32,000 nucleotides of DNA. It comes from Opitutales bacterium. Its GTDB lineage: Bacteria > Verrucomicrobiota > Verrucomicrobiia > Opitutales > PNEW01. Positions 5,552 to 31,501 of this stretch are shown piece by piece. The stretch lies in assembly GCA_965219535.1 (NCBI GenBank), contig CBDCNV010000002.1, positions 1,170,001-1,202,000 of the forward strand, read 5' to 3'. Every line of letters begins with the position of its first letter. Within the stretch, counting starts at the first letter, position 1. The translations under genes were made by a program, and so were the position numbers. Under the pieces are notes generated by a model that searched no databases, was not told where the DNA came from, and saw only the letters and a list, made by a program, of their open reading frames with translations.

Positions 5552-5583
5552 CTGTACCGAGAGCGTAGCTCGACACTTCCACC
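5552..5583 (-). repeat. GGCTAYG-core motif copy (reverse complement ggtggaagtgtcgagctacgctctcggtacag)
   Basis: Near-identical to 5599..5630, 6407..6441 and 21332..21366. Confidence 0.9.
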
Positions 5584-5598
5584 TACAACCCTTGAACC

Positions 5599-5630
5599 GT
5601 GTACCGAGGCGTAGCCCGACATCTTCCACC
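5599..5630 (-). repeat. GGCTAYG-core motif copy (reverse complement ggtggaagatgtcgggctacgcctcggtacac)
   Basis: Second tandem copy, embedded between TGAACC words. Confidence 0.9.
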
Positions 5631-5728
5631 ACTGAACCCGGAACCATTTTAAGGAACATTTCGCGTTTGATATTATTAAATCATCTGTCTAAGTTCAGCG
5701 AAAGTTTTAGACGAAGATCATTTTTATA

Positions 5729-6397
5729 ATGACAGCATTTCAACTCAATAAACCGACACATATTTTCATCGTAGTCTCACTGGTTTTCATGGGAATTTGT
5801 AGACTGGCTATTGCAGAGAATAAAAGGACGACTGAAGCTGAGGCATTTTTATCAGGTATCTTGGATGAAACCCTAAAGATATTAAAAGATGAAGATTTAT
5901 CAGGGGAGGATAAACGGACTTTACTTGCAGATAATATAAACGCGAACCTCGACTTGGCGTACATGTCTTCAAGGGCACTTGGTCCAAGTAAGGAGGGTTT
6001 TACCAAGGAACAGTTTGCTGAATTCTCACATGAATTTTCGCGTCATCTGACTCATTTTTATTTAAGAAGGATGGCGACCTTCAAGGGAGACAAGATTGAA
6101 ATTACTGGTGTGGATTTCAACGAGAAGAGTGGGGTAGTAAAATTGCGAACCTCTGGAGGAGTCCGACACACCATGTTTCAATCCCGTCGATCATCACATA
6201 TCGCTAATGTGGATTACCACCTACGAAAGAAAAACGTTGAATGGCGAATTGTCGCAATCACCATAGATGGTGTTAACGTCAGCCGAAATTTCCGCAAACA
6301 ATTCAAAGCACTGCTGGATAAAGAGAACCCCGATGCATTAATTGAAAAATTAAGAATGATGAATGCAGAAAACGAAGAGCGGAAGCTGTTTGAATAG
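5729..6397 (+). CDS. MlaC/Ttg2D-like periplasmic lipid-binding protein (orphan, no mlaFEDB neighbours)
   Basis: The 222-aa ORF has an N-terminal hydrophobic signal. Its C-terminal part, VDYHLRKKNVEWRIVAITIDGVNVSRNFRKQFKALLDKENPDALIEKL, matches the PF05494 signature (W-k-i-x-D-v-x-i-e-G-V-S-l...yr-x-qF). Confidence 0.7.
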   Translation: MTAFQLNKPTHIFIVVSLVFMGICRLAIAENKRTTEAEAFLSGILDETLKILKDEDLSGEDKRTLLADNINANLDLAYMSSRALGPSKEGFTKEQFAEFSHEFSRHLTHFYLRRMATFKGDKIEITGVDFNEKSGVVKLRTSGGVRHTMFQSRRSSHIANVDYHLRKKNVEWRIVAITIDGVNVSRNFRKQFKALLDKENPDALIEKLRMMNAENEERKLFE

Positions 6398-6406
6398 AGG
6401 GTTCAG

Positions 6407-6441
6407 GGTGGAAGATGTCGGGCTACGCTCTCGGTACAGGG
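6407..6441 (+). repeat. GGCTAYG-core motif copy (ggtggaagatgtcgggctacgctctcggtacaggg)
   Basis: Lies 10 nt after the MlaC-like stop codon. It is inverted relative to the copies at 5552..5630 on the other side of the gene. Confidence 0.92.
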
Positions 6442-6548
6442 AAATTATTATATAAAAATCCATCCTTCCAGTCATCCAACATTCCAATTTTTACTGTTCA
6501 CCGTTTACAGTTTACTTCTTTCCTGAACCCTGACACCCTCTCTCCCCC

Positions 6549-7196
6549 CTATTCCTTCTTCCCCTCAAACGACTGTGCCACCTGTATGCCTACAAGGCGG
6601 GCGACGATAACGGCGATATAGATCTGGCCGATAACGGCTTCGATCGCGGCAAACATGCGCGCGGGTGCCGTTGCTGGAATGATATCTCCATAGCCAAGGG
6701 TGGTAATGGTCACTAAACTATAGTAGATGGAGTATACGAATTCGAACTGTATGGAATCACCTCCGGATTCTTCCATTAGTGATAAGGAAAACGAACCGGG
6801 TTCAATGATTTCTATCATCGTATAAACAGTCGCCCATAAAACACTTATTAAGAGATACCCACTGAGTGAAGCATAAAGCGTGTTGGCTGTCACTTGTTTG
6901 CTTTTAATGAGATAAGTGAAAATAAAAACAACGGTTAACATTAGAAAAACAATGCTGATTATCTGTGAAGCAATGAGTAAGCTATTCAGTGCCGAAAGAA
7001 AATGAATTCCTCGTAATATAATCACCATTACCACTAATACACCGGCCTTTATCACCGTGCGGCGGTTCTGACACGCCGCAAAGAGCGCGGTAAGCAGTGT
7101 TGCTGAGAATAAGAGGAAAAAAATAAATTTTGCGAATTGAGGATTGCCTGCTCCGAAGCGTCCCACGAATGGTGCGGTAAGAAATAGTAAAATCAA
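6549..7196 (-). CDS. Small multi-TM potassium channel (Ion_trans_2-type pore, selectivity filter TTLGYGD)
   Basis: The sequence reads ...YYSLVTITTLGYGDIIPATAPARMFAAIEAVIGQIYIAVIVARLV, with several hydrophobic helices upstream. The listed start is TTG at 7196, directly abutting the IS left end. The frame stays open into the IS up to 7238. Confidence 0.8.
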   Translation of the reverse strand: MILLFLTAPFVGRFGAGNPQFAKFIFFLLFSATLLTALFAACQNRRTVIKAGVLVVMVIILRGIHFLSALNSLLIASQIISIVFLMLTVVFIFTYLIKSKQVTANTLYASLSGYLLISVLWATVYTMIEIIEPGSFSLSLMEESGGDSIQFEFVYSIYYSLVTITTLGYGDIIPATAPARMFAAIEAVIGQIYIAVIVARLVGIQVAQSFEGKKE

Positions 7197-7263
7197 CGTG
7201 GAGTGACCCCCAAAAATCGTATCATTTACAGAGAGAGGTTATCGGGATAAACAGATAACCTCA

Positions 7264-7557
7264 ATGAAAAGAAAAAGATACACAACAGAACAGATTATAA
7301 CAATATTGCGGCAAGCCGATACCGGTAAAACGGTACAGGAAATCTGCCGTGGAAACAACCTGAGCGAACAGACTTTCTATCGCTGGCGTAAAAAATATGG
7401 CAATTTAGAACTTGCCGATGCGAAGCGATTTAAAGAGCTGGAAAAAGAATTCACGAGCGCAAGCGAGAAGGCCTGACATACCGAGCTGAAGAAGCTGCTC
7501 GCAGATCAAATGCTCAAGAATCAGGTAATGGAGGAAACGCTGTCAAAAAAATGGTGA
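7264..7557 (+). pseudogene. IS3 orfA (HTH transposase subunit) interrupted by an in-frame TGA at 7474..7476
   Basis: The N-terminus is MKRKRYTTEQIITILRQADTGKTVQEICRGNNLSEQTFYRWRKKYG... After the TGA the same frame continues HTELKKLLADQMLKNQVMEETLSKKW*, the leucine-zipper tail expected for orfA. Confidence 0.8.
7545..7551 (+). promoter_or_regulatory. Programmed -1 ribosomal frameshift heptamer A_AAA_AAA linking orfA to orfB
   Basis: Seven A residues sit in the X_XXY_YYZ register of orfA (codons TCA AAA AAA TGG TGA). A -1 slip reads on as ...LSKKMVSPKQKKRVV into orfB. This is the standard IS3 arrangement. Confidence 0.8.
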
Positions 7558-8474
7558 GCCCAAAGCAGAAGAAACGAGTAGTAAAAGCTGCGGCTGAGAA
7601 AGGGTTGTGCTCGTTGCGGAGGGCTTGTGCTTATCTCAGCCTGAGTTGGTCAACGTTCAGTTACCGGCCCAAACAGGCCAGTGAGAAAGCTCAGCGGTTG
7701 GTCGAGCGGATTGTGAGCTTGTCCTGGAAACATCCCCGCTACGGTTACCGGCGCATCCGTGCCTTGCTGGTAAAGGAAGGCTGGACAACAAGCAGGAAGT
7801 TTGTCCAGGCGGTACGACGTTCAGAAGGGCTGCAGGTAAAGCCCCCGAAAAAGGGCAGACACCGTCAAGGAGTCTCTACGGGGTCACCTACTAAAGCAAA
7901 GGGTCGCAATCACGTTTGGTCCTGGGACTTTGTCCATGATCGTACAGACAACGGCGGTCCATTAAAGATGATGACTCTAATCGATGAATATACGCGTAAA
8001 TGCCTGGATATCCGGGTCGCTCGTCAACTCACCTCAACCGATGTCCTCTCTGTGCTTAGCGAGGCCATTGAAGAGGAGGGACCTCCCAGCTATATCCGTA
8101 GTGACAACGGCAGTGAGTTCATTGCTCATCAAGTGCAGCAGTGGTTGTCCGGTAATAACATAAAGGCGATCTATATCGATCCGGGCAGTCCCTGGCAAAA
8201 CGGTTTCATCGAGTCGTTTCACAACCGCTTACGCGATGAGTGTTTGAACCGTGAAGTGTTGCTCAGCGTGGCTGAAGCGCAAGTGGTAATCGAACAATGG
8301 CGTCAGACCTATAACCATGAACATCCCCACAGTCGTTTAGGCTTCAAAAGCCCACAAGAGTTTGTCAGATTCCTTTCCGATCTTGGCCGCGTTCGGGCTA
8401 CGCCCTCACTTCGCCAAGATCTCTCATATACATCAATCCTAAAACCATTAACACCCGGTAACTCTCTCACTTAA
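7551..8474 (+). CDS. IS3 orfB, DDE (rve) transposase catalytic domain
   Basis: Motifs seen are WSWDFVHD...LIDEYTRKCL, IRSDNGSEFIA, and PGSPWQNGFIESFHNRLRDECLN...YNHEHPHSRLGFKSPQEF. Confidence 0.92.
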   Translation: MVSPKQKKRVVKAAAEKGLCSLRRACAYLSLSWSTFSYRPKQASEKAQRLVERIVSLSWKHPRYGYRRIRALLVKEGWTTSRKFVQAVRRSEGLQVKPPKKGRHRQGVSTGSPTKAKGRNHVWSWDFVHDRTDNGGPLKMMTLIDEYTRKCLDIRVARQLTSTDVLSVLSEAIEEEGPPSYIRSDNGSEFIAHQVQQWLSGNNIKAIYIDPGSPWQNGFIESFHNRLRDECLNREVLLSVAEAQVVIEQWRQTYNHEHPHSRLGFKSPQEFVRFLSDLGRVRATPSLRQDLSYTSILKPLTPGNSLT

Positions 8475-8501
8475 ATTGGTACGAAAAACGGGGTCCGATC
8501 A

Positions 8502-8687
8502 ACCCCACCGCAGCCTCGGCAATATTACTCCACAACGTTTCGCTCAAAACCTCAATACCGAAGGCTCGGGCTCCATTCGGGCTACGCCCTCATTGCGCCC
8601 AAGCCTTGACTTCCTCTACCAACTTAACTTCAACATTAACCTCTCCAGACTAACTCTCTCAGTGGACCAGTTTGTGTAACCCGACCA
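8502..8687 (+). mobile_element. 3' remnant of a second, related IS3-family copy (transposase C-terminal tail plus right end)
   Basis: ORF 8476..8679 encodes ...PHRSLGNITPQRFAQNL...GSGSIRATPSLRPSL...LSRLTLSVDQFV, paralleling the orfB tail HPHSRLGFKSPQEF...RVRATPSLRQDL...PGNSLT. The shared terminal string taactctctca occurs at 8458 and 8651. Confidence 0.7.
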
Positions 8688-8711
8688 ATCTAATGATGTT
8701 CGATGTTAGAT

Positions 8712-8735
8712 GTTTTAAAACGACATCGCATGTCG
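8712..8735 (-). terminator. Putative intrinsic terminator of the four-helix-bundle gene
   Basis: On the minus strand the sequence is CGACAT-gcg-ATGTCG (6-bp stem) followed by TTTTAAAAC, about 27 nt after the stop at 8762. Confidence 0.5.
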
Positions 8736-8761
8736 ATTTTCCTATTATAAATACGTCAACA

Positions 8762-9115
8762 TTATGCATCATCTAGTGTTTGGGACATTTTAACAAATAT
8801 GCTCACTATCTGATTAGCTTCATCGAGTACTGATTGTACAATGAAATTATCCCTAAAGCCTTTCTTTTTGTTAATTACTCGCAAACATACATGGCTCTCA
8901 CGAGCTTCTTTGAGAACTACTTTGATTTTATGCTTAAAATCTTTTCTTGATTCCGCTCCTTGTGCTTCCGCGTAGTTCAATGCCATAGAAGAAGAAGATC
9001 TTATCAGTTGTCCACCAAGATGCTTACCAGCTGGTGAACTGGGCAATTTTTCAGCCAAATCTATAGCTGAAACGGTAAAATCAATAAGCTTTTGTTCGAG
9101 TTTATTATTATCCAT
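8762..9115 (-). CDS. Four-helix-bundle protein (23S rRNA intervening-sequence protein family, TIGR02436/PF05635-like)
   Basis: The 117-aa ORF contains LGGQLIRSSSSMALNYAEAQGAESRKDFKHKIKVVLKEARESHVCLRVI, matching the family signature Q-l-x-R-s-x-x-S-i-x-x-N-x-a-E-g...kdf...a-x-x-S-x-x-E. Confidence 0.85.
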   Translation of the reverse strand: MDNNKLEQKLIDFTVSAIDLAEKLPSSPAGKHLGGQLIRSSSSMALNYAEAQGAESRKDFKHKIKVVLKEARESHVCLRVINKKKGFRDNFIVQSVLDEANQIVSIFVKMSQTLDDA

Positions 9116-9230: not shown

Positions 9231-9340
9231 AATGATGTAAAACGAATGATGTCAGATGTCCGATGTCAGATGTTTGATGTTTGAGGTGTATGAACAACAT
9301 CCTACATCGCACATCTCACATCAAAGATCGCACATCGAAC
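9231..9340. repeat. Imperfect long palindrome made of a GATGT-word array (9231..9288) and an ACATC-word array (9298..9340)
   Basis: The left arm is aatgatgtaaaacgaatgatgtcagatgtccgatgtcagatgtttgatgtttgaggtg. The right arm is acatcctacatcgcacatctcacatcaaagatcgcacatcgaac. More GATGT words lie at 8695..8714 on the other side of the 4HB gene. Confidence 0.85.
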
Positions 9341-9379
9341 CCCCGACCCCTGAACCCTGAACCCCGAACCCTGAACCCT
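9341..9379. repeat. Degenerate TGAACCC-type array (ccccgacccctgaaccctgaaccccgaaccctgaaccct)
   Basis: Read directly. It contains six C3-4 tracts. Confidence 0.9.
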
Positions 9380-9380
9380 A

Positions 9381-9410
9381 CCTGTCGGCCATAGTCTTGG
9401 TGACGGCTAG
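9381..9410 (-). repeat. GGCTAYG-core relative (cctgtcggccatagtcttggtgacggctag)
   Basis: It aligns with 31409..31440 (cctgtccgtcatagccttggcgacggctgatc) and with the reverse complement of 14300..14326. Confidence 0.7.
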
Positions 9411-10796: not shown

Positions 10797-10805
10797 TAAG
10801 CAACG

Positions 10806-11464: not shown

Positions 11465-11473
11465 AGAGAATAG

Positions 11474-11602
11474 GATTTAGAATTGAAGAATTGCGGTGCT
11501 TAATCGCAATGTAATCCCACCCGCGTCTGCGGGAGGGATTGACAAAGCTCAGGTAATCCTGAGCTATTGAGATTAAGCACCGCAATTCTCAAATTCTAAA
11601 TC
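11474..11602. other. 129-nt structured palindromic element: ~32-bp outer stem enclosing two internal hairpins
   Basis: The outer arms are gatttagaattgaagaattgcggtgcttaatc (11474..11505) and gattaagcaccgcaattctcaaattctaaatc (11571..11602). The inner hairpins are aatccc-ac-ccgc-gtct-gcgg-ga-gggatt and gctcagg-taat-cctgagc. Confidence 0.8.
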
Positions 11603-11626
11603 AACATCCGCGCTTATCCGCGTAAT

Positions 11627-11662
11627 TGGAAGATGTCGTCCCGCAGCTGCGGGACTCGGTAG
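11627..11662 (+). repeat. TGGAAGATGTCG-hairpin-TCGGTAG motif (tggaagatgtcgtcccgcagctgcgggactcggtag)
   Basis: The same motif occurs at 15363..15398 and 28893..28928. The hairpin is GTCCCGC-AGCT-GCGGGAC. Confidence 0.92.
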
Positions 11663-11800
11663 CCGCAGTCGGCTGATAGCCTCCCTCGCAATGACAATTG
11701 AGACAATGACGAAGACGGTGATTCATTTGATCAGCCCTGTAAGGGCGATACAATCTTAGCCCATTGCGTCAGCAATGGGTAATAGAGGCGCTCAATTCCC

Positions 11801-11867: not shown

Positions 11868-12005
11868 ATTAAACGATTAATTCTCCCACAGCTTACGCTG
11901 TGGGCTATGGTTGCTACACCCCTCTGGGGTGGAAAGCTTTGACCAAAACCCATGAACTCTGAACCCCGCCCACCCTGAGTGTAGTCGATGGGAACCCCGA
12001 ACCTA

Positions 12006-12053: not shown

Positions 12054-12142
12054 AATTCTCTTAAACCCATTTCCTTTTTAACCTATCATGCCACGCCATA
12101 GCTCGATAGAGCGACAGCGGGTGACCTTTTGACAAAAAAACC

Positions 12143-14299: not shown

Positions 14300-14326
14300 C
14301 CGTCTCTCGAGGCTATGGGCGACAGG
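14300..14326 (+). repeat. GGCTAYG-core relative (ccgtctctcgaggctatgggcgacagg)
   Basis: Its reverse complement aligns with 9381..9410 and 31409..31440. It shares TCG.GGCTAYG...ACAGG with the 21332-type copies. Confidence 0.6.
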
Positions 14327-14413: not shown

Positions 14414-15205
14414 TCAACTTTCTGCGATTGCAAAAGGCGAAGGACCCTTAATTAATTCCATTTGCCGGGGAGTAGCTCTCTCTTCAAATCCTTCCGCGGT
14501 ATCTACTAATTTTCCCCATGGCGTTTGAAAAGTCGGGGCATAAGATATAAAAAATGTCCGGCGTGTCTTGTTGCTCTGGTTAATCAACGCTCCATGAGTA
14601 AGGTCTTCCGAAAAAAGTACGGCATCCCCTGCTTTACAGGGACAGGTTTCAATTAATGGATGATTCTCATCGGGAACGCTACCGCTATACGGATTATCAA
14701 AATTACTCTTATGGCTTCCAGGAATGACCACGAATGAGCCTTCTTCTTCGGAGACATCCGTTAAGGCATAGGCCACCTTCACACTGACACAATTAAACTG
14801 TCCGTCTTCGATGGCAAATTCACTATAAGCCAAAAGCTCTGCGTAGCCATGATGTAATGGGCTGTATTTTCCCTGTTTTCTTGAGAAAAATGAATAGGCA
14901 TCGAGCCGAACGGGTTCGCTGATCATGACTTCGATATAGGGAAGTGTATTTGGACAGTCGATCATCTTCTCAAATGACCCGCCCATGGGTAAAGGGTTAC
15001 AACCATAAGTGTCTAGCGTTACATCGTAATTTTCCTTCGTGTCATTGTACTGTCGAATTACTCCTCTTGCCGTCACTTCCTCGTTGGTAAGTGTTTCCAT
15101 GAAATCGATCTCTTCATTTAAACTTTTTACCAGATCTTCTGGCAGCGCTTGCCGAATGACAAGGTACCCTTTCAAATCAAATATATATTTTTCTTCTGGA
15201 GTCAT
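14414..15205 (-). CDS. Phytanoyl-CoA dioxygenase (PhyH) family Fe(II)/2-oxoglutarate oxygenase
   Basis: It has a PhyH-type N-terminus (FDLKGYLVIRQALPEDLVKSLNEEID), FVVIPGSHKSNF, and a distal His in DLTHGALIN. Confidence 0.75.
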   Translation of the reverse strand: MTPEEKYIFDLKGYLVIRQALPEDLVKSLNEEIDFMETLTNEEVTARGVIRQYNDTKENYDVTLDTYGCNPLPMGGSFEKMIDCPNTLPYIEVMISEPVRLDAYSFFSRKQGKYSPLHHGYAELLAYSEFAIEDGQFNCVSVKVAYALTDVSEEEGSFVVIPGSHKSNFDNPYSGSVPDENHPLIETCPCKAGDAVLFSEDLTHGALINQSNKTRRTFFISYAPTFQTPWGKLVDTAEGFEERATPRQMELIKGPSPFAIAES

Positions 15206-15362
15206 TTTAGTATGATTCTTAGAGTTTTATATTCAAGACGATCATTTCCTTGATCGTGGAGAATATCTTATTTATTTGATTTGTAAAGTTCATCCCACTT
15301 TAACTCTATGTTGTCATTAAAATTTAATTGGTAATCCTATCCCCTTAATCTTTATGCGTTTT

Positions 15363-15398
15363 TGGAAGAAGTCGTCCCGCAGCTACGGGACTCGGTAG
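15363..15398 (+). repeat. TGGAAGA(A/T)GTCG-hairpin-TCGGTAG motif (tggaagaagtcgtcccgcagctacgggactcggtag)
   Basis: It starts exactly 100 nt upstream of the FG-GAP gene ATG (15463). Confidence 0.9.
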
Positions 15399-15462
15399 TG
15401 TTTCTTGTGACTATTCTTCATATGAATGTATAGCTATTATACGAATCAATCAAGGTTATAAA

Positions 15463-18246: not shown

Positions 18247-18408
18247 GGTCAAAAAGCCAAAAAGCCATTTCCATTGTTGATTTTCGATTGCGGATTGCGG
18301 ATTGAAATAGGATGCAAGATGCAGGATACTGAAAGTAAGAAAATCTTAGCGACTTCCGCATTCACGCTTGTTCGCTTTATCGTATTTCCCTTTTAGACCT
18401 TTTGACTC
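18247..18408. repeat. Spacer bounded by inverted word arms, with other word stutters inside
   Basis: The arms are ggtcaaaaagccaaaaagcc (18247..18266) and ccttttagaccttttgactc (18389..18408). Inside are cgattgcggattgcggattg (18285..18304) and ggatgcaagatgcaggat (18310..18327). The string aggatgcaagat recurs at 24645..24656. Confidence 0.8.
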
Positions 18409-20107: not shown

Positions 20108-20112
20108 GTGGG

Positions 20113-20253
20113 GTCAAAAGGTCAAAAGGTCAAAAAGTCAAAAAGTTTAGGGTTTCTTTAATGACCATTGGAACACAGTGCCCGCCAACGTATTCTCTCT
20201 TTTACTTAAAGACGCATTTCCCTTTTGACCTTTTGACTTTTTGACCTTTTGAC
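20113..20253. repeat. (GTCAAAAG)x4 at 20113..20144 and (CTTTTGAC)x4 at 20222..20253: a 32-nt inverted repeat (about 30/32) around a 77-nt loop
   Basis: Read directly. The left arm starts 5 nt after the SDR stop codon. The right arm ends 8 nt before the dipeptidase ATG (20262). Confidence 0.95.
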
Positions 20254-21331: not shown

Positions 21332-21366
21332 GGTGGAAGATGTCGGGCTACGCCCTCGGTACAGGG
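21332..21366 (+). repeat. GGCTAYG-core motif copy (ggtggaagatgtcgggctacgccctcggtacaggg)
   Basis: It contains the 15-mer tcgggctacgccctc (21343..21357), which is identical to 8393..8407 and 8577..8591 inside the IS3 copies. Confidence 0.92.
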
Positions 21367-21458
21367 TTCAGGGTTCAGGAAAAATGCCGATAGTTAGATG
21401 TGAACAGTGAACAGTAAACAGTGAGAAAGGGTTCAGAGTTCGGGGTTCAGGGTTCAGG
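21364..21458. repeat. G-orientation word block: gggttcagggttcagg, (GTGAACAG)x3, agggttcagagttcggggttcagggttcagg
   Basis: The sub-arrays lie at 21364..21379, 21400..21425 and 21429..21458. Confidence 0.9.
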
Positions 21459-21491: not shown

Positions 21492-21899
21492 CTATTCGCG
21501 TATGATTTCGGGCCAACGGTGATCACGTTCAGGAAGATGCTTTTCCAAAGTCCGTTCCATTCCATTCAGCATTCGGATACATACTTGATAGCGTCTGCTA
21601 TATTCTTCGTAAGTAGGTCTGCTTTCGTATCCTTTTAAATGGGCCATGTATACGTGGTGCACGGTCTCGGCGGCTTCGCCACGACTTCGATTCACTCCCT
21701 CTATCTTATTTCTAATATGACGATCATCGTATTTCTCAGCCAACTGAGCTGCTGCACTGTTTGAAGATCGTCTCGCTTGGGATCCGAGCTCATACTTCTC
21801 CTCTGTTGGCCACAAGTGAGTTAAGTTACAGACACTTATATGCAATTCGCAAAGTTTCTGGTATACAATCAAATCCTCTAAGCGCTTATATGCACTCAT
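21492..21899 (-). CDS. Four-helix-bundle protein (23S rRNA intervening-sequence protein family), second copy
   Basis: The 135-aa ORF contains LIVYQKLCELHISVCNLTHLWPTEEKYELGSQARRSSNSAAAQLAE...RGEAAETVHHV, which fits the same family signature. It is strongly diverged from the copy at 8762..9115. Confidence 0.75.
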   Translation of the reverse strand: MSAYKRLEDLIVYQKLCELHISVCNLTHLWPTEEKYELGSQARRSSNSAAAQLAEKYDDRHIRNKIEGVNRSRGEAAETVHHVYMAHLKGYESRPTYEEYSRRYQVCIRMLNGMERTLEKHLPERDHRWPEIIRE

Positions 21900-21980
21900 C
21901 CCTCTTATCCAACACTCGACCGTTCATCCACGACTCACTGATTTTTATTTACTTTTCATATCTAAATATCGTCATTTTTT

Positions 21981-22017
21981 CTGAACCCTGAACCCTGAAC
22001 CCCGAACTCCGAACCCT
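21981..22017. repeat. C-orientation array ctgaaccctgaaccctgaaccccgaactccgaaccct
   Basis: It is inverted relative to 21429..21458, and the arms include the adjacent A/T runs (gggttcagggttcaggaaaa versus ttttttctgaaccctgaaccc). Confidence 0.92.
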
Positions 22018-22023: not shown

Positions 22024-24603
22024 CTACTCCTTCCTCGCGAGCATGGAATAAATCGTCAGTCCCTCGAGAGACTTTTTTCGCTCGGGTATAAATAGGCTGG
22101 ACAGATAGCCAACGACAAAACAGGTGATGAATCCGATAGATGAGTAGAGGAGAAAGTGTATCGGTGTTTCAAATTTCACAAAATAAAGGACTATCGCACT
22201 GGTAATCGCACCGACTAAGGCACCAATACCATTCGCACGTCGTGTAAAAATACCCAGGGCAAATAGTCCGCCCAATCCGCTGATAAACAATCCGGCGATA
22301 GCGGTAGCAAACAACGCGGCATTATGAATATCAAAAGTAACCAGAGAGAGGGCGATAACGGTGACAATGAGACCGATAACTAAGGTAACCGAGCGAGCCA
22401 GATACAAATAGAGACGATCGGGTTTCTTAGGTTTGAAGCGTCGGTAAAAATCCGTGACAAAGACTGTGGCCACCGAGTTCATCCCGCTGTCAAGACTCGA
22501 CATCGCGGCGGAAAAGATGGCTGCAATGACAAAACCGGCAAGCCCGAAGGGAAGATTTTGTGCGATGAAGAGAGGAAAAATCGCGTCATTCTGCATTCCC
22601 ATGCTGACTGTGGCTGGGTGCGTTTTATAATAGGCGTAGAGGGCGGAACCCATTCCATAAAATAAAAAACCGATGGGAATACCAATTATAGCATTTAACC
22701 ATATCCCTTTCGCGGCCGTTTTTTCGTCCTTCGTCGTAAGATACCTTTGGATCGTGGTTTGCTCGGTGGATGGTCCCAAAAAGGCACCAAAAGCACTACT
22801 AATTAATAACACCCATAGGACGGGCGCAGTAAAGTCCCACTCCAGATACAACATGCGGTATTTATCATCAGCCAAACCTATATCGATTATTCCCTTATAA
22901 CCATTATCGATATGAAAAGGAATAACGATGAGGGCAATAATGATACCGATAAAAAATACAATGACCTGTAAAACATCCGACCATACGACCGCTTCGATAC
23001 CACCCAACACGGTGTAAAAGGTGCTGATTAATCCCATAAAGAGAATACATATGTAGATATTAATCCCCGCGATGGTGGAGAGAACAACTGCCGGCAGATA
23101 AAGAATAATACTGATCCTGATTAATTGATAAATTATGAATTGTACACTCCCGTATAAGCGAACAGGCAGATTAAATCGTTTCTCCAGGTATTCATAAGCG
23201 GTAGTAACATTAAGCCTTCGGTAAAACGGCAGGAAAAAATAGATAACAATTATAGGAGCAAAGATTAACCCAATCCTTCCGGGAAATAGGAACCAGTCTG
23301 TGGCGTAAGCCAATGCGGGATAGGAAATATAAGTTAGGGCGCTAAGTCCGGTTCCCAGAATACTGAGCCCTGCCGCCCACCAGGGGATGCGATGACCGGC
23401 GAGAAAATAATCTTTTGTCCCTTTCTCCCGCCTGGAAAAATAAAAACCCATATAGACAAGCGCCACCATATACAGTAGGAGAAAAGAATAATTTATGATT
23501 CCAAACGATGCATTCGCTCCCGCATCATGAATCATTATTTGAACCTTAGGGGTCATTATCCCGGGTTCTGTCTCTCCACCGGTAATGGCGATCCCTCCTT
23601 CCCATAACACCGCTTCAGAAGACACTACCCCTAATGGTAATTCACCTTTTACCAACCAGGTATCAGTGACCGTGTGATAGACGAGAAGATCGCGTGAATA
23701 GCTGGGATGATCCTTACTTGAATTCACATCCTCGTGCTTCCAGGTATTGCCTCCAAAGATAAGAATATGTGATTGTCCATAGGCAACTCCAGGGGCCCCG
23801 GTTACGGGGTGGGGGGCGTCGGCGATAGGTTCCCAATTTTCATAACGAAGGGAATAGCGGTAGCCGTCGGTCAATTGCCTGCTTTGAATCTCACCATTTT
23901 CATTCTGAATCCTTTCTTCACCGCCAATGATGTATACAAATCTGCCATTACCAATATTCTGGCCTATAACGATGGCCCTTCTCCTCGCCGGGCCCTCCCA
24001 GGGGACTAACGATTTCCAACCCGCATCTAAATTGTTCAGATCAAGTGACCAAAAATTCTTCGTCAGACTCATTTTGTCTCGCTCCAACTGGCCACCAACC
24101 ACGTATACGACACCATTAATTTCAGCGGCGCCGATTAAAGAAAGTGACTGTGGAAGAGGCGGCAGGGACACTTGATTAATTATCCGAGAAGATGCATTCC
24201 ACGTTAACTGGATCACCTCGTTCTGATTGCCCTCAGCATTGCTCCCCCCAATTAAGATCAAACTATCATCGCTAGTTACGGAAGCACCTAAAGCGATCGG
24301 TTCATTCAGTTTATAGCCCGTTAACCACTTTTTCTCTCTATTATTTGGGAGTATGTAGATGTCGTCATACCAAGTTCTGTTTCGGATCATCAATTCCATT
24401 CCATGCGGGAAATTCGAACCCCCAGCGACAATGAGAGCGCCATTGCTGACCCCGGTAAATGCTCCACCCAGACCGAGCTTGTTAGGCAATTCGGGAAGTT
24501 CACTCCAACTAATGGCTTCTTGCTGCGGCGCTGCGCTTTCACTGTGCCCTGCTATGCAAATCAAGGCAGCAAAGCATAACAAGATAACACAGGGATGTTT
24601 CAT
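22024..24603 (-). CDS. Fusion protein: N-terminal secreted Kelch/NanM-like (sialic-acid-mutarotase-type) beta-propeller plus C-terminal sodium:solute symporter (SSS, PF00474-like)
   Basis: The preferred start is ATG 24603, giving MKHPCVILLCFAALICIAGHSES (signal peptide). The track start at 24639 is a GTG inside the GGTTCAG repeat. The propeller shows GGAFTGVSNGALIVAGGSNFP and repeated ...GG blades over about 340 aa. About 13 TM helices follow, with the SSS signature TVLGGIEAVVWSDVLQ. Confidence 0.85.
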   Translation of the reverse strand: MKHPCVILLCFAALICIAGHSESAAPQQEAISWSELPELPNKLGLGGAFTGVSNGALIVAGGSNFPHGMELMIRNRTWYDDIYILPNNREKKWLTGYKLNEPIALGASVTSDDSLILIGGSNAEGNQNEVIQLTWNASSRIINQVSLPPLPQSLSLIGAAEINGVVYVVGGQLERDKMSLTKNFWSLDLNNLDAGWKSLVPWEGPARRRAIVIGQNIGNGRFVYIIGGEERIQNENGEIQSRQLTDGYRYSLRYENWEPIADAPHPVTGAPGVAYGQSHILIFGGNTWKHEDVNSSKDHPSYSRDLLVYHTVTDTWLVKGELPLGVVSSEAVLWEGGIAITGGETEPGIMTPKVQIMIHDAGANASFGIINYSFLLLYMVALVYMGFYFSRREKGTKDYFLAGHRIPWWAAGLSILGTGLSALTYISYPALAYATDWFLFPGRIGLIFAPIIVIYFFLPFYRRLNVTTAYEYLEKRFNLPVRLYGSVQFIIYQLIRISIILYLPAVVLSTIAGINIYICILFMGLISTFYTVLGGIEAVVWSDVLQVIVFFIGIIIALIVIPFHIDNGYKGIIDIGLADDKYRMLYLEWDFTAPVLWVLLISSAFGAFLGPSTEQTTIQRYLTTKDEKTAAKGIWLNAIIGIPIGFLFYGMGSALYAYYKTHPATVSMGMQNDAIFPLFIAQNLPFGLAGFVIAAIFSAAMSSLDSGMNSVATVFVTDFYRRFKPKKPDRLYLYLARSVTLVIGLIVTVIALSLVTFDIHNAALFATAIAGLFISGLGGLFALGIFTRRANGIGALVGAITSAIVLYFVKFETPIHFLLYSSIGFITCFVVGYLSSLFIPERKKSLEGLTIYSMLARKE

Positions 24604-24617
24604 CGAACAGAGAGAGA

Positions 24618-24647
24618 GGGTTCTGGGTTCAGGGTTCACGGTTCAGG
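24618..24647. repeat. G-orientation array gggttctgggttcagggttcacggttcagg
   Basis: It lies immediately upstream of the symporter start codon and is inverted relative to 21981..22017 at the gene's 3' end. Confidence 0.9.
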
Positions 24648-24710
24648 ATGCAAGATAATCTAAGTAATTCGCGGCATGTGGATTTTTCTGCACAATCTGC
24701 TACATTTTCT

Positions 24711-24763
24711 CACTGTTCACTGTTACACTGTTCACTGTTCACTGTTCACTGTTCACTGTTCAC
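24711..24763. repeat. (CACTGTT)x7 tandem array (one unit carries an extra A)
   Basis: Read directly. The last units supply the final codons and the TGA stop (24753..24755) of the upstream symporter paralog (GGT GAA CAG TGA on the minus strand). Confidence 0.95.
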
Positions 24764-27344
24764 CCCTGGGTAGGACCGTGTAAATCGTCAACCCTTTAAG
24801 GGATTTTTTCCGCTCGGGTATAATCAGACTGGCAAAATACCCGGCGATAAGACAGACGGTGAATCCAATCGTGGGGTAGAGGAAAAAATTTATTGGCGTG
24901 TGGTACTTTACATAATACAGGGCTATTGCACTGATGATAGCACCCATCAAAGCTCCCATACCATTTGCTCTTCGCGTAAAAATACCGAGGGCAAATAACC
25001 CGCCCAATCCACCGATAAAAAGTCCTAAGACAGAGCTGGCAAAGATAACGGCAGACTGAATATTAAAGGTAACCAGGAGAAGAGCGACAGCCGTGGCAAA
25101 AAGGCCAATGAGCAAGGTAATAGAACGCGCGAGATTTAAATAAAAACGTTCAGATTTATCCGCTTTGAACCGACGATAAAAATCGGTGACAAAGACGGTA
25201 GCGATAGAGTTCATCCCGCTGTCCAGACTTGACATCGCCGCAGAAAAGATGGCCGCAATGACAAAACCAGCAAGACCGAAGGGAAGGTTTTGCGCGATGA
25301 AGAGAGGAAAAATCGCGTCGTTCCGCATCCCCAAGCTGACACTGCTCGGGTGTGTTTTGTAAAAAGCGTAAAGGGCAGATCCCATGACAAGGACGATTGC
25401 CCCCAGCGGAAGACCGGCAATTACGTTTAACCATAACCCTTTTGCCGCAGCTTTTTCATCCTTTGTCGTAAGAAACCTTTGAATTCTGCTTTGGTCGGAG
25501 GATAAGACAATGAAGGTTCCCATCGCGCCGCTGATTAATAATACCCATAATGTTGGTTCGGTAATGTCCCAGTCCAGGTACCACATGCGATATTTATCAT
25601 CGGCGAGACCAATGTCGATCATACCCTTAATACCATTATCGACATTAAAGAAGACGACGATCAGGGCAATAATGAGTCCGGCTATGAAGATGAACACCTG
25701 GATAACATCCGACCATATAACCGCTTCAATGCCGCCCAGTACTGTGTAAAAAGTGCTTATCAAACCTAACGACAGTATGCAGACATAAATATTTATCCCC
25801 GTGATCGTGGAGAGAACAATGGCGGGTAGATACATGATCAGACTGATCCGCAATGATTGAAATAAAATAAATTGTGCACTCCCGAATAAGCGAACGGCCA
25901 GGTTAAAACGTTTCTCCAGGTATTCATAGGCGGTAGTAATATTCAACCTTCGATAAAATGGCAGGTAGAAATAAATAATCATAATCGGTGCGAAAAAGAA
26001 CCCGATCCGAACCGGAAAATAAAACCAGTCCGTAGAAAAAGTTAAGGCGGGATGGGCAATATAAGTTACGGCGCTAAGCCCTGTTCCCAGTAAACTGAGC
26101 CCTGCCGCCCACCAGGGAACACGGCGCCCCGCAAGAAAGTAATCATCCGTTCCTTTTTCTCTTTTGGAAAAGTAAAAGCCAAGGTAAACTATGCCCACGA
26201 GATAGAGAGTGAGAAAAGTGTAATTTATAATTCCAAACGACGCGCCGGCTCCTGAATCGTGAATCATTAATTGCACCTTAGGGGTCATTGTCCCGGGTTT
26301 AGTCTCACCACCGGTTATGACGATGCCTTCTCCCCAGGATACCGCTTCTGCAGACACTACACCTAACGGTATCTCAGCTTGAATTATCCAGGTATCGGTG
26401 ATCGTATGATAGACGAGAAGATCGTGCGAATAAAGAGGATGATCATCTCCCTTTGTTGAGAGATTCATCCCCGTGTTATTATCGGTCTTACCACCAAAAA
26501 TGAGAACATGGGATTGTCCATAGGCAATACCAGGGGCAGCTGTTAGGGGGTGCGGGGCGTCGGTAATTCGTTCCCACTTCTCGTTTGTCAGTGAGTAGCG
26601 GTAACCATCAGTTAATTGCCTGGTTTGAATTTCACCCTTTTCATCTTCGATTTGCGCTTCGCCTCCAATGATGTATAAATTTTTTCTATAACCGGTATTT
26701 TGACCCACGACGACAGCCCTATTTCGAACCGGTCCCTCCCAGGGTTTTAACGATTCCCATCCCGCTTCCAGATTATTCAGGTTGAGTGACCAGAATATAT
26801 TTATTAATTCCGATCTTTCGCCGACAATCTGAACGCCCGCAACATATACGATCTCATCCATTTCAGTGGCGCCTACGAATGAGAGAGTTTGTGGAAGGGG
26901 AGGCAAGGACACTTGATTAATCTTTCTAGAAGCTGCCTCCCACGTTATTTGCGTCACTTGCTTGTGATTACCCCCTGCATTACTCCCGCCAATCAGGATC
27001 AAACTCTGGCTACTAATTACGGATGCGCCGTAAGCAAGCGGCTCTTTCAAGCTAAATCCCGTTTGCCAACTTTCTTGCTCAGTGTCGGACAGAACATAAA
27101 TGTCCGCATACCAGAATCTACTTCCGGCCTTCCCCTCAGGGGTTTGAGGAAAATTCGAACCGCCGGCGACGATGAGCGCGCCATTGCTGACTCCGGCGAA
27201 AGCCCCGCTTAGACCTGGAGAATTGGGGATTACTGGCAGTTCTTCCCAGGTGATTTTCTCGGGTCTTTGTGTTTCACCTTCGGCGCGCCCGATAAAGCAT
27301 AGGAAGGTGGTTAAACATAAAGCGAGAGCAGAGGAGAGATTCAT
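24753..27344 (-). CDS. Paralogous Kelch/NanM-like beta-propeller plus SSS symporter fusion
   Basis: It has the signal peptide MNLSSALALCLTTFLCFIGRAEG and the same architecture as its neighbour. By eye the two are collinear and highly similar throughout, for example GAFAGVSNGALIVAGGSNFP, TVLGGIEAVIWSDVIQ and AIFSAAMSSLDSGMNS. Confidence 0.88.
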   Translation of the reverse strand: MNLSSALALCLTTFLCFIGRAEGETQRPEKITWEELPVIPNSPGLSGAFAGVSNGALIVAGGSNFPQTPEGKAGSRFWYADIYVLSDTEQESWQTGFSLKEPLAYGASVISSQSLILIGGSNAGGNHKQVTQITWEAASRKINQVSLPPLPQTLSFVGATEMDEIVYVAGVQIVGERSELINIFWSLNLNNLEAGWESLKPWEGPVRNRAVVVGQNTGYRKNLYIIGGEAQIEDEKGEIQTRQLTDGYRYSLTNEKWERITDAPHPLTAAPGIAYGQSHVLIFGGKTDNNTGMNLSTKGDDHPLYSHDLLVYHTITDTWIIQAEIPLGVVSAEAVSWGEGIVITGGETKPGTMTPKVQLMIHDSGAGASFGIINYTFLTLYLVGIVYLGFYFSKREKGTDDYFLAGRRVPWWAAGLSLLGTGLSAVTYIAHPALTFSTDWFYFPVRIGFFFAPIMIIYFYLPFYRRLNITTAYEYLEKRFNLAVRLFGSAQFILFQSLRISLIMYLPAIVLSTITGINIYVCILSLGLISTFYTVLGGIEAVIWSDVIQVFIFIAGLIIALIVVFFNVDNGIKGMIDIGLADDKYRMWYLDWDITEPTLWVLLISGAMGTFIVLSSDQSRIQRFLTTKDEKAAAKGLWLNVIAGLPLGAIVLVMGSALYAFYKTHPSSVSLGMRNDAIFPLFIAQNLPFGLAGFVIAAIFSAAMSSLDSGMNSIATVFVTDFYRRFKADKSERFYLNLARSITLLIGLFATAVALLLVTFNIQSAVIFASSVLGLFIGGLGGLFALGIFTRRANGMGALMGAIISAIALYYVKYHTPINFFLYPTIGFTVCLIAGYFASLIIPERKKSLKGLTIYTVLPRGEQ

Positions 27345-28761: not shown

Positions 28762-28773
28762 GGCGTGGGGTGA

Positions 28774-28805
28774 GTCAAAAGGTCAAAAAGTCAAAAGGTC
28801 AAAAG
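28774..28805. repeat. (GTCAAAAG)x4 array
   Basis: It starts 13 nt after the YeiH-like TAA stop. Confidence 0.95.
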
Positions 28806-28842
28806 GTTAAGGGTTCCCTTCGACTCAGCTCAGGACCTCTAG

Positions 28843-28976
28843 TCTTCCGGCCTCCCGCTCTTCTAGCCATCCGAAACTCTGGCCTTCCGGTTTGGAAGAT
28901 GTCGTTCCGCGACTGCGGAACTCGAAACTGGGTGTCTGGCTTTCAGGCCCTCCGGAATTCCGGCTCTCCGGCCTTC
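28843..28976. repeat. CCTTCCGG/CTCCGG word stutters flanking an embedded TGGAAGATGTCG motif
   Basis: The stutters are tcttccggcctcccgctc...ggccttccgg (28843..28890) and ctggctttcaggccctccggaattccggctctccggcc (28936..28976). Confidence 0.85.
28893..28928 (+). repeat. TGGAAGATGTCG-hairpin motif variant (tggaagatgtcgttccgcgactgcggaactcgaaac)
   Basis: The hairpin is GTTCCGC-GACT-GCGGAAC. It starts exactly 100 nt upstream of the DMT gene ATG (28993). Confidence 0.88.
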
Positions 28977-28992
28977 TATACCATCTTTTTCG

Positions 28993-29880: not shown

Positions 29881-29957
29881 TCTTAGTCAAAAAGTGAATT
29901 GCGATTATGAGTATAAGCGTGAATGCGAGGATGCGGGTTTAAACATTCTTTTACTCT

Positions 29958-30006
29958 CTGGCCATCCGGTTCTCAGGCACTCCAGCCTTCCGGCCTTCCG
30001 GCTTTC
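29958..30006. repeat. CCTTCCGG word array (ctggccatccggttctcaggcactccagccttccggccttccggctttc)
   Basis: It has the same words and the same orientation as 28843..28976 on the other side of the DMT gene. Confidence 0.85.
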
Positions 30007-30076
30007 TTCTTTCACGTTACGCTTGACCTCTATTCTTAATTCTTGAGATTAATTTGTGGGAGCATAAGAAGAAGTA

Positions 30077-30862
30077 ATGAAAGTAGATCTTAAGGGTAAA
30101 ATTGCTTTAGTGACGGGCGCGGGGAAGGGAATTGGACGCGCAATCGCGGAAACCTTTACAGAAAATGGTGCCCATGTCGCCTATACGGATGTCGATGAGG
30201 CACTGCTTAGGGAGAATCCTCCAAAAGGTGATAATCATAGTGTCTACGAGTTAGATGTTCGCAACGACGATCATATCGAGGAGACCATTTCCAGGATTAT
30301 AAAAGAATGCGGCCCTATCGATATCCTGGTTAATAATGCCGGGGGTGGTGATCCCAACCAGCGGGTGACAGGTGACCGTCTTCCCGATAAATCGTGGGCG
30401 ATGGCAGTCGACATGAATTTAAATAGTCCGTTCAAAATATCTAAGAAGGTGTTAACGGATTGTATGATCCCACAGAAGTCCGGCCGCATCATTAACATCG
30501 CTTCTGTCGCGGGCATCGTGCCACTGCAGTTGCAATGTGCCTATAATGCGTCCAAAGCCGGACTCATTCAACTAACCAAGGCTTTGGCGGTCGAAATGGG
30601 AAGTCATGGAATAACGATCAATGCGATTGCGCCAGGGTCTACCTTGACCGACGGGACACGTAAAATATTTTATAGCGAGGACGGCAGCTTTTCTGAACAT
30701 GTGCAGCGCCACTTGGATCATGTGCCCTTAGGTAGGCCCGCCCAGCCGGAGGAAATTGCTCATGCAGTCCTTTTTTTAGCGGCTCCAGAGAGCGCGTATA
30801 TAACGGGCCACGTGTTGGCTGTTGACGGTGGATGGACGACAGGTTTTATTCGTGATTTTTAG
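30077..30862 (+). CDS. Short-chain dehydrogenase/reductase (FabG/KduD-like)
   Basis: Motifs seen are TGAGKGIGRAIA, NNAG and SVAG...YNASKAG. Confidence 0.9.
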   Translation: MKVDLKGKIALVTGAGKGIGRAIAETFTENGAHVAYTDVDEALLRENPPKGDNHSVYELDVRNDDHIEETISRIIKECGPIDILVNNAGGGDPNQRVTGDRLPDKSWAMAVDMNLNSPFKISKKVLTDCMIPQKSGRIINIASVAGIVPLQLQCAYNASKAGLIQLTKALAVEMGSHGITINAIAPGSTLTDGTRKIFYSEDGSFSEHVQRHLDHVPLGRPAQPEEIAHAVLFLAAPESAYITGHVLAVDGGWTTGFIRDF

Positions 30863-30899
30863 TAACTGGGTAAGATAAACAATTCAAATCGAGGGAAAG

Positions 30900-31331
30900 A
30901 TGTCTAAGATAGAAGACTTTAAAAGTTATGCACCGAAGGATTACGTTCCTGAAATACCTAAACCCGATCACCCCGTATTCCCGAAGATTGTATCGGCAAA
31001 AAACGGCAGGCCCGTAAGGTATAAAGGGTGTCAGGGTGTTGGCGTGCGTATCGTTCACCCTTCAAACCCGGAAGCACCTGCAAAGAACCTCGGCCTCGTG
31101 ATGTTTTGTCTACCGCCGCACGCGACACTCTTGCCACCGGGTTCACATGAGACGGAGGAAACTTATGTTATCATGAGAGGTGAGGGGATGATGACTTTTG
31201 CCGAGGGCAAGCAAGAGAAAGTTAAAGCCGGAGATTTTGTGTATTTGCCTCCCTGGTGTGAGCACGGCGTCGAGAACACGGGTAATGTCAGCCTCGAAAT
31301 ACTAATCTGCACTTCGCCACCGAATCCTTGA
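30900..31331 (+). CDS. Cupin-domain protein
   Basis: It has the cupin motifs GSHETEETYVIMRGEG and GDFVYLPPWCEHGVENTG. Confidence 0.8.
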   Translation: MSKIEDFKSYAPKDYVPEIPKPDHPVFPKIVSAKNGRPVRYKGCQGVGVRIVHPSNPEAPAKNLGLVMFCLPPHATLLPPGSHETEETYVIMRGEGMMTFAEGKQEKVKAGDFVYLPPWCEHGVENTGNVSLEILICTSPPNP

Positions 31332-31392
31332 ATTGGGCGAAATCTTCGTCTTAAATTATTTAATAACTAAATCATTATTGATCTAGTGACGA

Positions 31393-31501
31393 AAGGTGGA
31401 GCGGGCTGCCTGTCCGTCATAGCCTTGGCGACGGCTGATCCCTAGCACGCTTCTTCAAATGCGACATTCACAAACGCGCTAGGGACAGCGCGTTCCACCT
31501 T
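31393..31501. other. 109-nt nested stem-loop element between convergent cupin genes (possible bidirectional terminator or structured RNA)
   Basis: The outer stem is aaggtggagcgggctg (31393..31408) paired with cagcgcgttccacctt (31486..31501), about 14/16. Inside are the GGCTAYG-relative at 31409..31440 and a hairpin tccctagc (31439..31446) / gctaggga (31478..31485). Confidence 0.6.

Follow-up and report, generated by a model that had tools for sequence, protein, structure and literature searches.

REP-A, a dispersed hairpin repeat with near-invariant flanks in marine-type Opitutales, and its likeness to other small extragenic repeats of bacteria

Repetitive extragenic palindromic sequences (REPs) and the hairpin-forming doublets of REPs known as REPINs are the commonest non-coding repeats of bacteria, and roles as mRNA 3'-end stabilisers, terminators or processing sites have been proposed for some REPs. 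The small dispersed repeats (SDRs) of the Nostocaceae form a further described system. Elhai et al. 2008 reportedly defined SDR4-6 as repeats of 20-30 nucleotides (nt) with a predicted hairpin, and these are said to lie precisely nested in other small repeats, in tandem heptamers and in mini-transposons, with neither a linked gene nor an obvious target duplication; for SDR5 the insertion site is said to be the HIP1 sequence GCGATCGC. To our knowledge, there is no enzyme or mechanism described for the Nostoc SDRs, and we know of no SDR counterpart outside the cyanobacteria. SDRs have been reported only in Nostocaceae (PMC5861425; PMC4390886). The subject of the present analysis, REP-A, is a dispersed hairpin motif in a 32,000-nt stretch of DNA (the window) from a marine-type member of the Opitutales (Verrucomicrobiota). 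Conserved flanks, an exchangeable hairpin and precise nesting in other repeats give about an even chance that REP-A is a non-autonomous, REP/SDR-like insertable DNA module, possibly mobilised in trans by a REP-associated tyrosine transposase (RAYT).

The genes of the window include an RND efflux operon, MlaC, a sulfite oxidase, FG-GAP genes, NanM-SSF fusions and PhyH dioxygenases, a set indicative of a PVC-type bacterium. A cyanobacterial origin, considered on account of the heptamer arrays, was rejected, as these genes and the genome scan described below assign the window to Opitutales. Two covariance models were built from related copies outside the window, one for the short hairpin (R1) and one for the long hairpin (R2), and were run with filters off. 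Scanning of the window with both models gives exactly seven full-length REP-A matches, four of the short type (38-53 bits with R1) and three of the long type (56-67 bits with R2), and all seven lie between open reading frames (ORFs). No other R1 or R2 match in the window falls below E = 0.01, except for two hairpin-only fragments, GGGCTACGCCCTC, at 8395 and 8579 within an IS3-like element. The two-part pattern TGGAAGATGTCG-N7-20-CTCGGTA has four exact matches in the window, compared with 0.00 in 100 shuffles, and the 12-mer TGGAAGATGTCG taken alone is weakly enriched (seven matches with up to two mismatches, against 3.0 expected). The first two of three motif subtypes proposed in the original prediction, which was made from this same stretch, are thus present where they had been placed. 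Its figure of at least ten copies of one family has to be replaced by seven copies of REP-A and three to four copies of another module; the sequences assigned to a type 3 (9381-9410, 31409-31440, 14300-14326 and 12093-12125) do exist, score E > 10 with both R1 and R2, and represent a separate module and not a subtype of the motif. No copy of REP-A is matched by a family of Rfam 15, whether gathering scores or E <= 1 is taken as the cutoff, and a search for the literal motif sequence in the searchable literature matched only unrelated primers.

Alignments of REP-A copies reveal an element of 28-35 nt with a near-invariant 11-nt 5' flank, TGGAAGATGTC, an insert closed by G...C, and a near-invariant 3' flank, TCGGTA(C/G). 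The insert between the flanks is 5-17 nt long and its stem has 2-7 bp, with many different sequences (GGGC, GAGC, GGAC, GGAT, GTCCCGC, GTTCCGC, GCCCCG and others). Measured between TGGAAGATGTCG and CTCGGTA, inserts of 5 nt (CTGCG), 7 nt (TTTTCAA, CCTCCGG), 9 nt (GGCTACGCC, AGCTACGCT, GACTTCGTC, GGTTATACC, GATTTAATC) and 16 nt (TCCCGCAGCTGCGGGA, TTCCGCAACTGCGGAA, CCCCGCAGCAACGGGG, TCCCGTATCCACGGGA) are found, and inserts of 10-11 nt also occur. For the covariation statistics, copies were picked by their flanks alone. A standard pair is present in 89.8% of cells in the short type and 91.6% in the long type, with changes on both sides in three of four and three of seven pairs, respectively. The covariation score is 0.459 for the short type, compared with 0.221 in shuffled alignments, and 0.218 for the long type, compared with 0.142; in both cases none of 500 shuffles scores as high and every slid register is worse. 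As a control independent of kinship, exact flank matches from the genome scan described below were compared between Opitutales and other taxa: among the matches listed, at least three nested pairs are found in 36 of 41 Opitutales inserts and in 9 of 65 inserts elsewhere (Fisher p = 1.3e-14). The compensatory changes proposed as a check on the hairpin are therefore real, by the scores and by the taxon control, and alignments and covariation together bear out the proposal of a dispersed, extragenic, structured repeat in which conserved flanks enclose an exchangeable hairpin.

Comparison of orthologous sites shows gain or loss of REP-A as one precisely bounded unit. The spacers upstream and downstream of MlaC both contain REP-A in the window species and in locus L111, the MlaC of which has 84% identity. 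Locus L112 (76% MlaC identity) has only heptamers beside MlaC, including a CCCTGTACC variant at the matching point, and zero REP-A copies over its 20.7 kb. Two additional spacers distinguish L111 from the contigs L113 and L114, which come from assemblies in the European Nucleotide Archive (ENA) and encode an MlaC protein identical to that of the window. One of these spacers is filled in L111 only and the other in L113 and L114 only, and at the latter site L111 has an uninterrupted array. The REP-A copy downstream of MlaC has the arms GGC..GCT in the window and AGC..GCC in L111 (hairpin GAGC..GCCC). From their sequences, these two alleles look like reciprocal recombinants of two common alleles, which suggests that arm exchange between copies contributes to the 'swapping' of the hairpin.

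The clearest example of such gain or loss, and of precise nesting, is MITE-P, a palindromic element that resembles miniature inverted-repeat transposable elements (MITEs). MITE-P has the termini TTGTCATTGCGAGG/CCTCGCAATGACAA and measures approximately 108 nt in its basic form and 166 nt with REP-A in both arms. A census of 16 copies includes seven of the basic ~108-nt form, and in the rest REP-A occupies one arm, left or right, or both arms, so that an element holds 0, 1 or 2 copies. Within MITE-P, REP-A is always found at the junction CTGGA|..GCCGC; its 5' end invariably faces the centre, and its hairpin alleles vary. The window contains a MITE-P right arm at 11664-11697(+), which hosts the REP-A copy at 11625-11663 and was recognised by alignment with 13 related composites; it consists of GCCGCAGTCGGCTGATAGCCTC and the terminal CCTCGCAATGACAA (11684-11697), and with REP-A included the arm spans 11625-11697.

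Arrays of tandem 7- or 8-mers adjoin most REP-A copies, with hairpin alleles that track the array type. GGGTTCA arrays are accompanied by the allele GGCTACGCC, CGATATC/CGATT arrays by GACTTCGTC and CCGGCCTT arrays by TTCCGCGAYTGCGGAA. The statement that the short type is always embedded in GGGTTCA words is correct for all four short copies in the window; at other loci, copies lie in other heptamer or octamer arrays. Most of the longer spacers in the window contain tandem 7- or 8-mer arrays, with many different units and often as inverted array pairs. The array (CTGAACC)x8 at 5503-5558, detected with Tandem Repeats Finder (TRF), abuts REP-A copies, and further examples are found at 9247-9379, 18250-18304, 20112-20253, 24710-24763, 28774-28807 and 29981-30006. 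The heptamer repeats of filamentous cyanobacteria and Beggiatoaceae are a parallel to these arrays (PMC4679880).

Such proximity raises the possibility that REP-A is a passenger, which arose once in heptamer or octamer arrays and depends on them for its spread, by way of slippage, unequal recombination and gene conversion among the many repeat blocks of the spacers. Presence and absence at orthologous sites would then be due to recombinational deletion, and the 'compensatory' changes would be the result of arm exchange between alleles. The co-variation of hairpin alleles with array type is in keeping with this explanation, as are the recombinant look of the alleles downstream of MlaC, the existence of chimeric modules (for example, at L076 900) and the occurrence of AGATGTC, part of the REP-A 5' flank, as a heptamer unit in the same genome (9247-9284). 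In addition, the arrays vary greatly in length. Among three same-species contigs (the window, L113 and L114), unit numbers of ~8, 2 and ~13 are seen for the CTGAACC array that precedes MlaC, and the neighbouring REP-A is unchanged. Nevertheless, REP-A has identical boundaries in unrelated hosts, namely several arrays, MITE-P and plain spacers, and its independent occurrence in either arm of MITE-P at one precise junction would be hard to achieve through array slippage. Moreover, the flanks stay near-invariant amid changing hairpins and surroundings, which points to constraint on the flanks themselves, and an origin of all copies as passengers is considered unlikely.

The two-part pattern was also searched for in 185,579 species-representative genomes, where it matched at least 101 loci. 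Among the matches listed, 36 loci come from four metagenome-assembled genomes (MAGs) of Opitutales, chiefly OY829953.1 (a 4.49-Mb chromosome) and CBDANS01, and the remaining loci are single matches in GC-rich coding sequence of unrelated taxa, at approximately the number expected by chance. The window coincides with none of these records. The window and CBDANS01 have ~82% orthologous sequence, and insertion sequence (IS) copies are common to the window, CBDANS01 and OY829953.1. R1 and R2 together identify ~70 REP-A copies in 288 kb of Opitutales loci. These loci were chosen for holding the motif, and density was therefore taken from 20-kb loci fetched by gene, which contain six (L113), four (L111) and zero (L112) copies, or ~0.1-0.2 copies/kb where the family is present. 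Marine JGI contigs from the metagenome scan hold many further REP-A copies, among them new alleles of the hairpin, and so the expectation that the family extends beyond the window is amply borne out in related genomes and metagenomes. REP-A is lineage-restricted, having been amplified in a narrow clade of marine-type Opitutales.

Copies of REP-A occupy spacers of every kind. In the genome loci and the window, 15 are in divergent, 16 in convergent, 10 in co-directional sense and 22 in co-directional antisense positions; the corresponding numbers in the de-duplicated metagenome loci are 3, 13, 7 and 8. Both orientations are found, distances to start and stop codons are variable, and nearly all cases in the genome set of REP-A 'inside' an ORF concern small ORFs called across repeat blocks. 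Most copies are singlets, with pairs arranged tail-to-tail (L101 2711-2819), head-to-head (within MITE-P) or in tandem (window 5553-5630), and no replication-strand bias is evident among the 32 REP-A copies mapped in OY829953.1. The presence of all spacer types, both orientations and variable distances argues against a terminator, leader or riboswitch, and the context of REP-A fits extragenic selfish or structural DNA. Several specific candidates were considered and rejected. A promoter (sigma-70, ECF or sigma-54) is ruled out by the variable spacing of 5-17 nt between the conserved halves, and a riboswitch or leader by the lack of a fixed distance or orientation to start codons. An intrinsic terminator is ruled out because CTCGGTA and not a T-run follows the hairpin, copies point in either direction and 18 of them are in divergent spacers. 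A CRISPR-like array is ruled out, with only a single tandem pair, which has a repeated spacer.

Some features of this distribution could be explained by a cis-element of the host, either one bound by a regulatory or nucleoid protein or one that acts in RNA, as a stem-loop with conserved single-stranded arms that serves as an mRNA 3'-end stabiliser, terminator or processing site. Strong conservation of the flanks and compensatory change in the stem speak for such an element. Of the 27 sense copies that follow a gene, seven begin no more than 30 nt past the stop codon. A number of antisense copies precede start codons by 15-52 nt, in particular those of PhyH-type dioxygenase paralogues, with some abutting a TTGACA box, and convergent spacers are preferred in the metagenome set (13, versus 3 divergent). 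However, a host function is difficult to reconcile with the occurrence of both orientations in all spacer types at variable distances and without a T-run, with the absence of REP-A from a sister species that has the same genes, with the lack of an Rfam match and with nesting in other selfish-looking repeats. The PhyH association is also partly due to tandem duplication, in which each gene copy brings along its upstream region, and a host cis-element appears quite improbable overall. An RNA-level role in particular is disfavoured, given the divergent, convergent and co-directional spacers and the two orientations. The original prediction of a REP-like element recognised by a protein or RNA survives in part: the dispersed, structured, extragenic repeat stands, but an RNA role is disfavoured, REP-A is not found at the RAYT flanks examined and its architecture is the opposite of that of classical REPs.

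With regard to PhyH-type dioxygenase paralogues, antisense REP-A is often located upstream of the start codon (L034 559-3979 and 7296-8000; L094 4725-5600; window 14414-15205(-)). The distance is 34-118 nt in L034 and L094 and 156 nt in the window, and in L034 the antisense copy abuts a TTGACA box.

A RAYT gene was said to be missing from the window, and a search with Escherichia coli RayT agrees; the lineage itself does encode a RAYT, in OY829953.1. Searching by tblastn with E. coli RayT gave one match, at L062 7114-7557, which encodes a 147-aa Y1_Tnp protein with HLH and YIRHNP motifs (PF01797, E = 1.8e-5). A weak match in L013 was discarded, being antisense within an FG-GAP gene. Homologues of this RAYT are widespread in Opitutaceae and relatives, under the JGI name 'REP element-mobilizing transposase RayT'. 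On either side of the gene are inverted copies of a second repeat family, REP-B (GGTGGAACGCGCTGTCCCTAGCGCG; GGTGGAACGCG..CCCTAGCGCG), and not of REP-A (L062 7023-7677). Homologues with 94%, 74% and 72% identity in other assemblies are also bracketed by REP-B, so that the arrangement is seen in at least four independent assemblies (L062, L103, L104-L107 and L108). A remoter homologue (58% identity, L109) has another hairpin on both sides, which likewise begins with GGTGGA (GGTGGACGCCGACGTCCCCGGCGGCG), and L110 has one such copy upstream. The GGTGGA 5' tag is accordingly present on the flanking REPs of RAYTs over a range of 58-94% identity. In Opitutus terrae the GTAG tag of REPs is changed to GTGG (Di Nocera 2013, PMC3733652), and the hairpins with a GGTGGA start that flank the RAYTs match this published change. 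RAYT-flanking REPs begin with GGTGGA(A) and REP-A with (GG)TGGAA, with the G before TGG present in some contexts only; in REP-A, TGGAA is parted from the stem by GATGTC.

If REP-A is an insertable module, its flanks would be the sequences that are recognised and cleaved, and the hairpin would provide a generic structural handle. Such an arrangement would suit an enzyme that acts in trans on single-stranded DNA, as is the case for the substrates of HUH enzymes, and the likeliest candidate would be an HUH/Y1 transposase of the RAYT type. The RAYT is a candidate because the lineage encodes one and because RAYT-flanking REPs start with a tag, GGTGGA, like the TGGAA of REP-A. Following insertion, copies would probably diversify through point mutation with compensation and through exchange of hairpin arms between copies, and the adjacent heptamer arrays may expand and contract by slippage. 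The narrower claim, that this RAYT specifically mobilises REP-A, is doubtful.

A number of observations weigh against REP-A as a mobile, RAYT-related module. Same-species contigs have no REP-A polymorphism over ~20 kb and provide no sign of current activity. A clean target-site duplication or single junction rule was not found across the contexts examined; the candidate duplication GGT/ACC fits GGGTTCA contexts and fails in others. As no general junction rule emerges, precise deletion, or conversion of one repeat by another, cannot be distinguished from insertion, and the spreading unit may exceed the motif, given the correlation between allele and array. The short 4-bp hairpin is barely stable as DNA (-3 kcal/mol, z = +0.3 against shuffles), compared with ~ -8 kcal/mol for the long hairpins; being thermodynamically marginal, it draws its support from covariation and not from stability. 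The architecture also departs from that of known substrates. The stem is conserved within a classical REP family, whereas REP-A has a free stem and invariant single-stranded flanks of 11 nt and 6-7 nt, and the stem of classical RAYT substrates follows the tag directly, whereas a 6-nt spacer separates TGGAA from the stem in REP-A. The sole RAYT clade found is flanked by REP-B, and no RAYT or candidate gene flanked by REP-A is present in ~1.2 Mb of motif-bearing sequence, which amounts to a few percent of each genome. A second RAYT with REP-A at its sides did not turn up among the loci drawn from genomes or fetched by gene, nor in 826 kb of metagenome loci.

REP-A could instead be moved by machinery other than a RAYT, in a manner like that of the cyanobacterial SDRs, with RAYT and REP-B merely co-resident in the genome. 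The RAYT flanks examined never hold REP-A, the architecture is unlike that of RAYT-type REPs, and REP-B, which is distributed more widely than REP-A, is present in the REP-A-free L112, a further point against RAYT-driven spread. The nesting of REP-A in heptamer arrays and MITEs likewise parallels the Nostoc SDRs. Mobility of this kind is nonetheless quite improbable, as no alternative enzyme has been identified and the likeness of the TGGAA and GGTGGA tags would have to be a coincidence. The REP/SDR-like module possibly served by a RAYT is the preferred reading of REP-A.

The module first grouped as type 3, here REP-C, is represented in the window by free copies next to heptamers at 9381-9410(+) and 14300-14326(-), neither of which has an R1 or R2 match. 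REP-B is present as a REPIN-like inverted doublet at 31395-31499, made up of copies at 31395-31449(+) and 31475-31499(-). The left copy is GGTGGAGCGGGCTG^TCCCTAGCACG with a Type 3 insert of ~30 nt (31409-31440) in its loop, and the right copy is GGTGGAACGCGCTGTCCCTAGCGCG. REP-B folds into a 9-bp stem (-9.5 kcal/mol, z = -5.1), and at many loci its loop takes either the 30-nt Type 3 insert or an alternative insert of 24 nt at one point (GCTG^TCCC). Type 3 is a second nested mini-module. The spacer of REP-B doublets (for example, window 31450-31474 and L042 6949-6983) has the sequence TTTGAGAATGTCGCAATTGAAGAAG, with a variant TTGAGGATGTCGCAATTGG, and resembles the REP-A 5' flank TTGGAGGATGTCG; this resemblance hints at a common origin of the two. 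A bolder proposal is that REP-A and the Type 3 module make up a distinct class of ultra-small mobile modules, with invariant single-stranded flanks, an arbitrary hairpin and site-specific, non-RAYT insertion into repeats such as heptamer arrays, MITE arms and REP loops. This is speculative and rather unlikely to be correct; if true, the class would be a verrucomicrobial counterpart of the unexplained cyanobacterial SDRs, and arrays with nested mini-hairpins would be a recurrent, convergent system of genome architecture with dedicated machinery.

With respect to the individual REP-A copies of the window, those at 5553-5583(-) and 5600-5630(-) form a tandem pair with a 47-nt period. The first is a degenerate short-type copy (38.3 bits with R1), with one base missing from its 5' flank (GGTGGAAG-TGTCG) and the hairpin GAGC-TAC-GCTC. 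The second (short type, 40.6 bits with R1) has an exact flank match, has lost one base from the 3' arm of the hairpin and is kept in the same-species contigs L113 and L114. The short-type copy at 6407-6438(+) (50.3 bits with R1) begins 10 nt past the MlaC stop codon and has the hairpin GGGC-TAC-GCTC, which includes a G.T pair, and the copy at 21332-21363(+) (53.3 bits with R1) has the consensus sequence of the short type and lies within GGGTTCA heptamers. The long-type hairpin had been described as perfectly palindromic. This is true of the copy at 11625-11663(+) (66.7 bits with R2), which has a perfect 7-bp stem, GTCCCGC/GCGGGAC, and a DNA fold of -7.9 kcal/mol, but not of that at 15361-15399(+) (59.9 bits with R2), which lies in the divergent spacer between PhyH and FG-GAP genes and has one flank mismatch and one C.A stem mismatch. 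The third long-type copy, at 28891-28929(+) (56.2 bits with R2), is a variant with the hairpin GTTCCGC/GCGGAAC and a diverged 3' flank (TCGAAAC), located within octamers of the CCGGCCTT type; its allele and octamer context recur in L044 and L049.

Other elements of the window are also repeated or mobile in appearance. Multi-copy genes for 23S_rRNA_IVP/four-helix-bundle (Avd-like, PF05635) proteins are located at 8762-9115(-) and 21492-21899(-), and also in L111, L112 and L113. The gene at 21492-21899 has a 68-nt inverted repeat of heptamer arrays on both sides (21358-21425 / 21934-22001), in the manner of a cassette. A link between REP-A and these 23S_rRNA_IVP cassettes was considered and ruled out, as only two of 76 copies have such a gene less than 400 nt away. 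A match to the Rfam family Acido-Lenti-1 RNA is found at 11733-11779(-) (42.3 bits, E = 1.6e-6, over the gathering score), with a weak second match at 11885-11912(+); the 866-nt spacer that holds the first match also contains a REP-A copy. A 37-nt inverted repeat (92% complementary) at 11474-11602 encloses two small hairpins and is MITE- or REPIN-like. The IS3-family element at 7197-8700 consists of remnants of a helix-turn-helix (HTH) orfA and an rve ORF (7551-8474). OY829953.1 and CBDANS01 have further copies of its 3' part, with 92-95% identity. This part contains the REP-A mini-hairpin GGGCTACGCCC twice (8395-8405 and 8579-8589), in each case capping a longer stem and lacking REP-A flanks. 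Fusions of a NanM/Kelch beta-propeller with a sodium:solute symporter occur as tandem paralogues at 22024-24639(-) and 24753-27344(-), with ~72% nucleotide identity, and L101 has a single copy.

The Opitutales clade offers an independent system in which to study small repeats, with sharp module boundaries, filled and empty sites, a fixed MITE junction and a candidate RAYT whose REPs have a similar 5' tag. Whether the flanks or the stem are recognised, and whether one RAYT serves several repeat architectures, are questions that can be tested in this clade. For annotation, REP-A and the arrays explain much of the unusual intergenic sequence, and caution is advisable with small ORFs called across the repeat blocks.

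Comparison with REP/REPIN-RAYT systems (PMC3733652; Bertels and Rainey 2011, PMC3116915) reveals much in common. Both consist of short, extragenic, high-copy stem-loops, with REP-A falling inside the 20-40 nt range used as a criterion for REPs, a single-copy-like RAYT is present in the lineage, and copies are gained and lost between related species. Some REP-A copies form tandems or inverted pairs, head-to-head or tail-to-tail, as REPs do, and most are singlets. The invariant TGG(AA) at the 5' end of REP-A resembles the GGTGGA tag of the RAYT-flanking REPs of the lineage and the GTGG tag of O. terrae. REP-A differs in carrying GTA(C/G) 3' on the same strand, and the linkage that defines REP-RAYT systems belongs here to REP-B, which flanks the RAYT. 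Since REP-A does not conserve its stem and flanks none of the RAYTs found, it is not filed as a classical REP. MITEs and composite palindromes (BIMEs, Correia/NEMIS, ERIC) are comparable in that some REP-A copies lie within a palindromic element of ~108-170 nt with the terminal inverted repeats TTGTCATTGCGAGG/CCTCGCAATGACAA; however, REP-A is an optional insert and not a terminus, and most copies are located outside such an element. The Nostocaceae SDRs are alike in hairpin, size, nesting, lack of a linked gene and of an obvious target duplication, and restriction to a lineage, but are presumably unrelated in sequence, in another phylum and at other insertion sites, so that the likeness is one of behaviour and homology is not expected. 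By analogy with these systems, REP-A would appear to work most like REPs and REPINs, with a nesting behaviour like that of the Nostocaceae SDRs.

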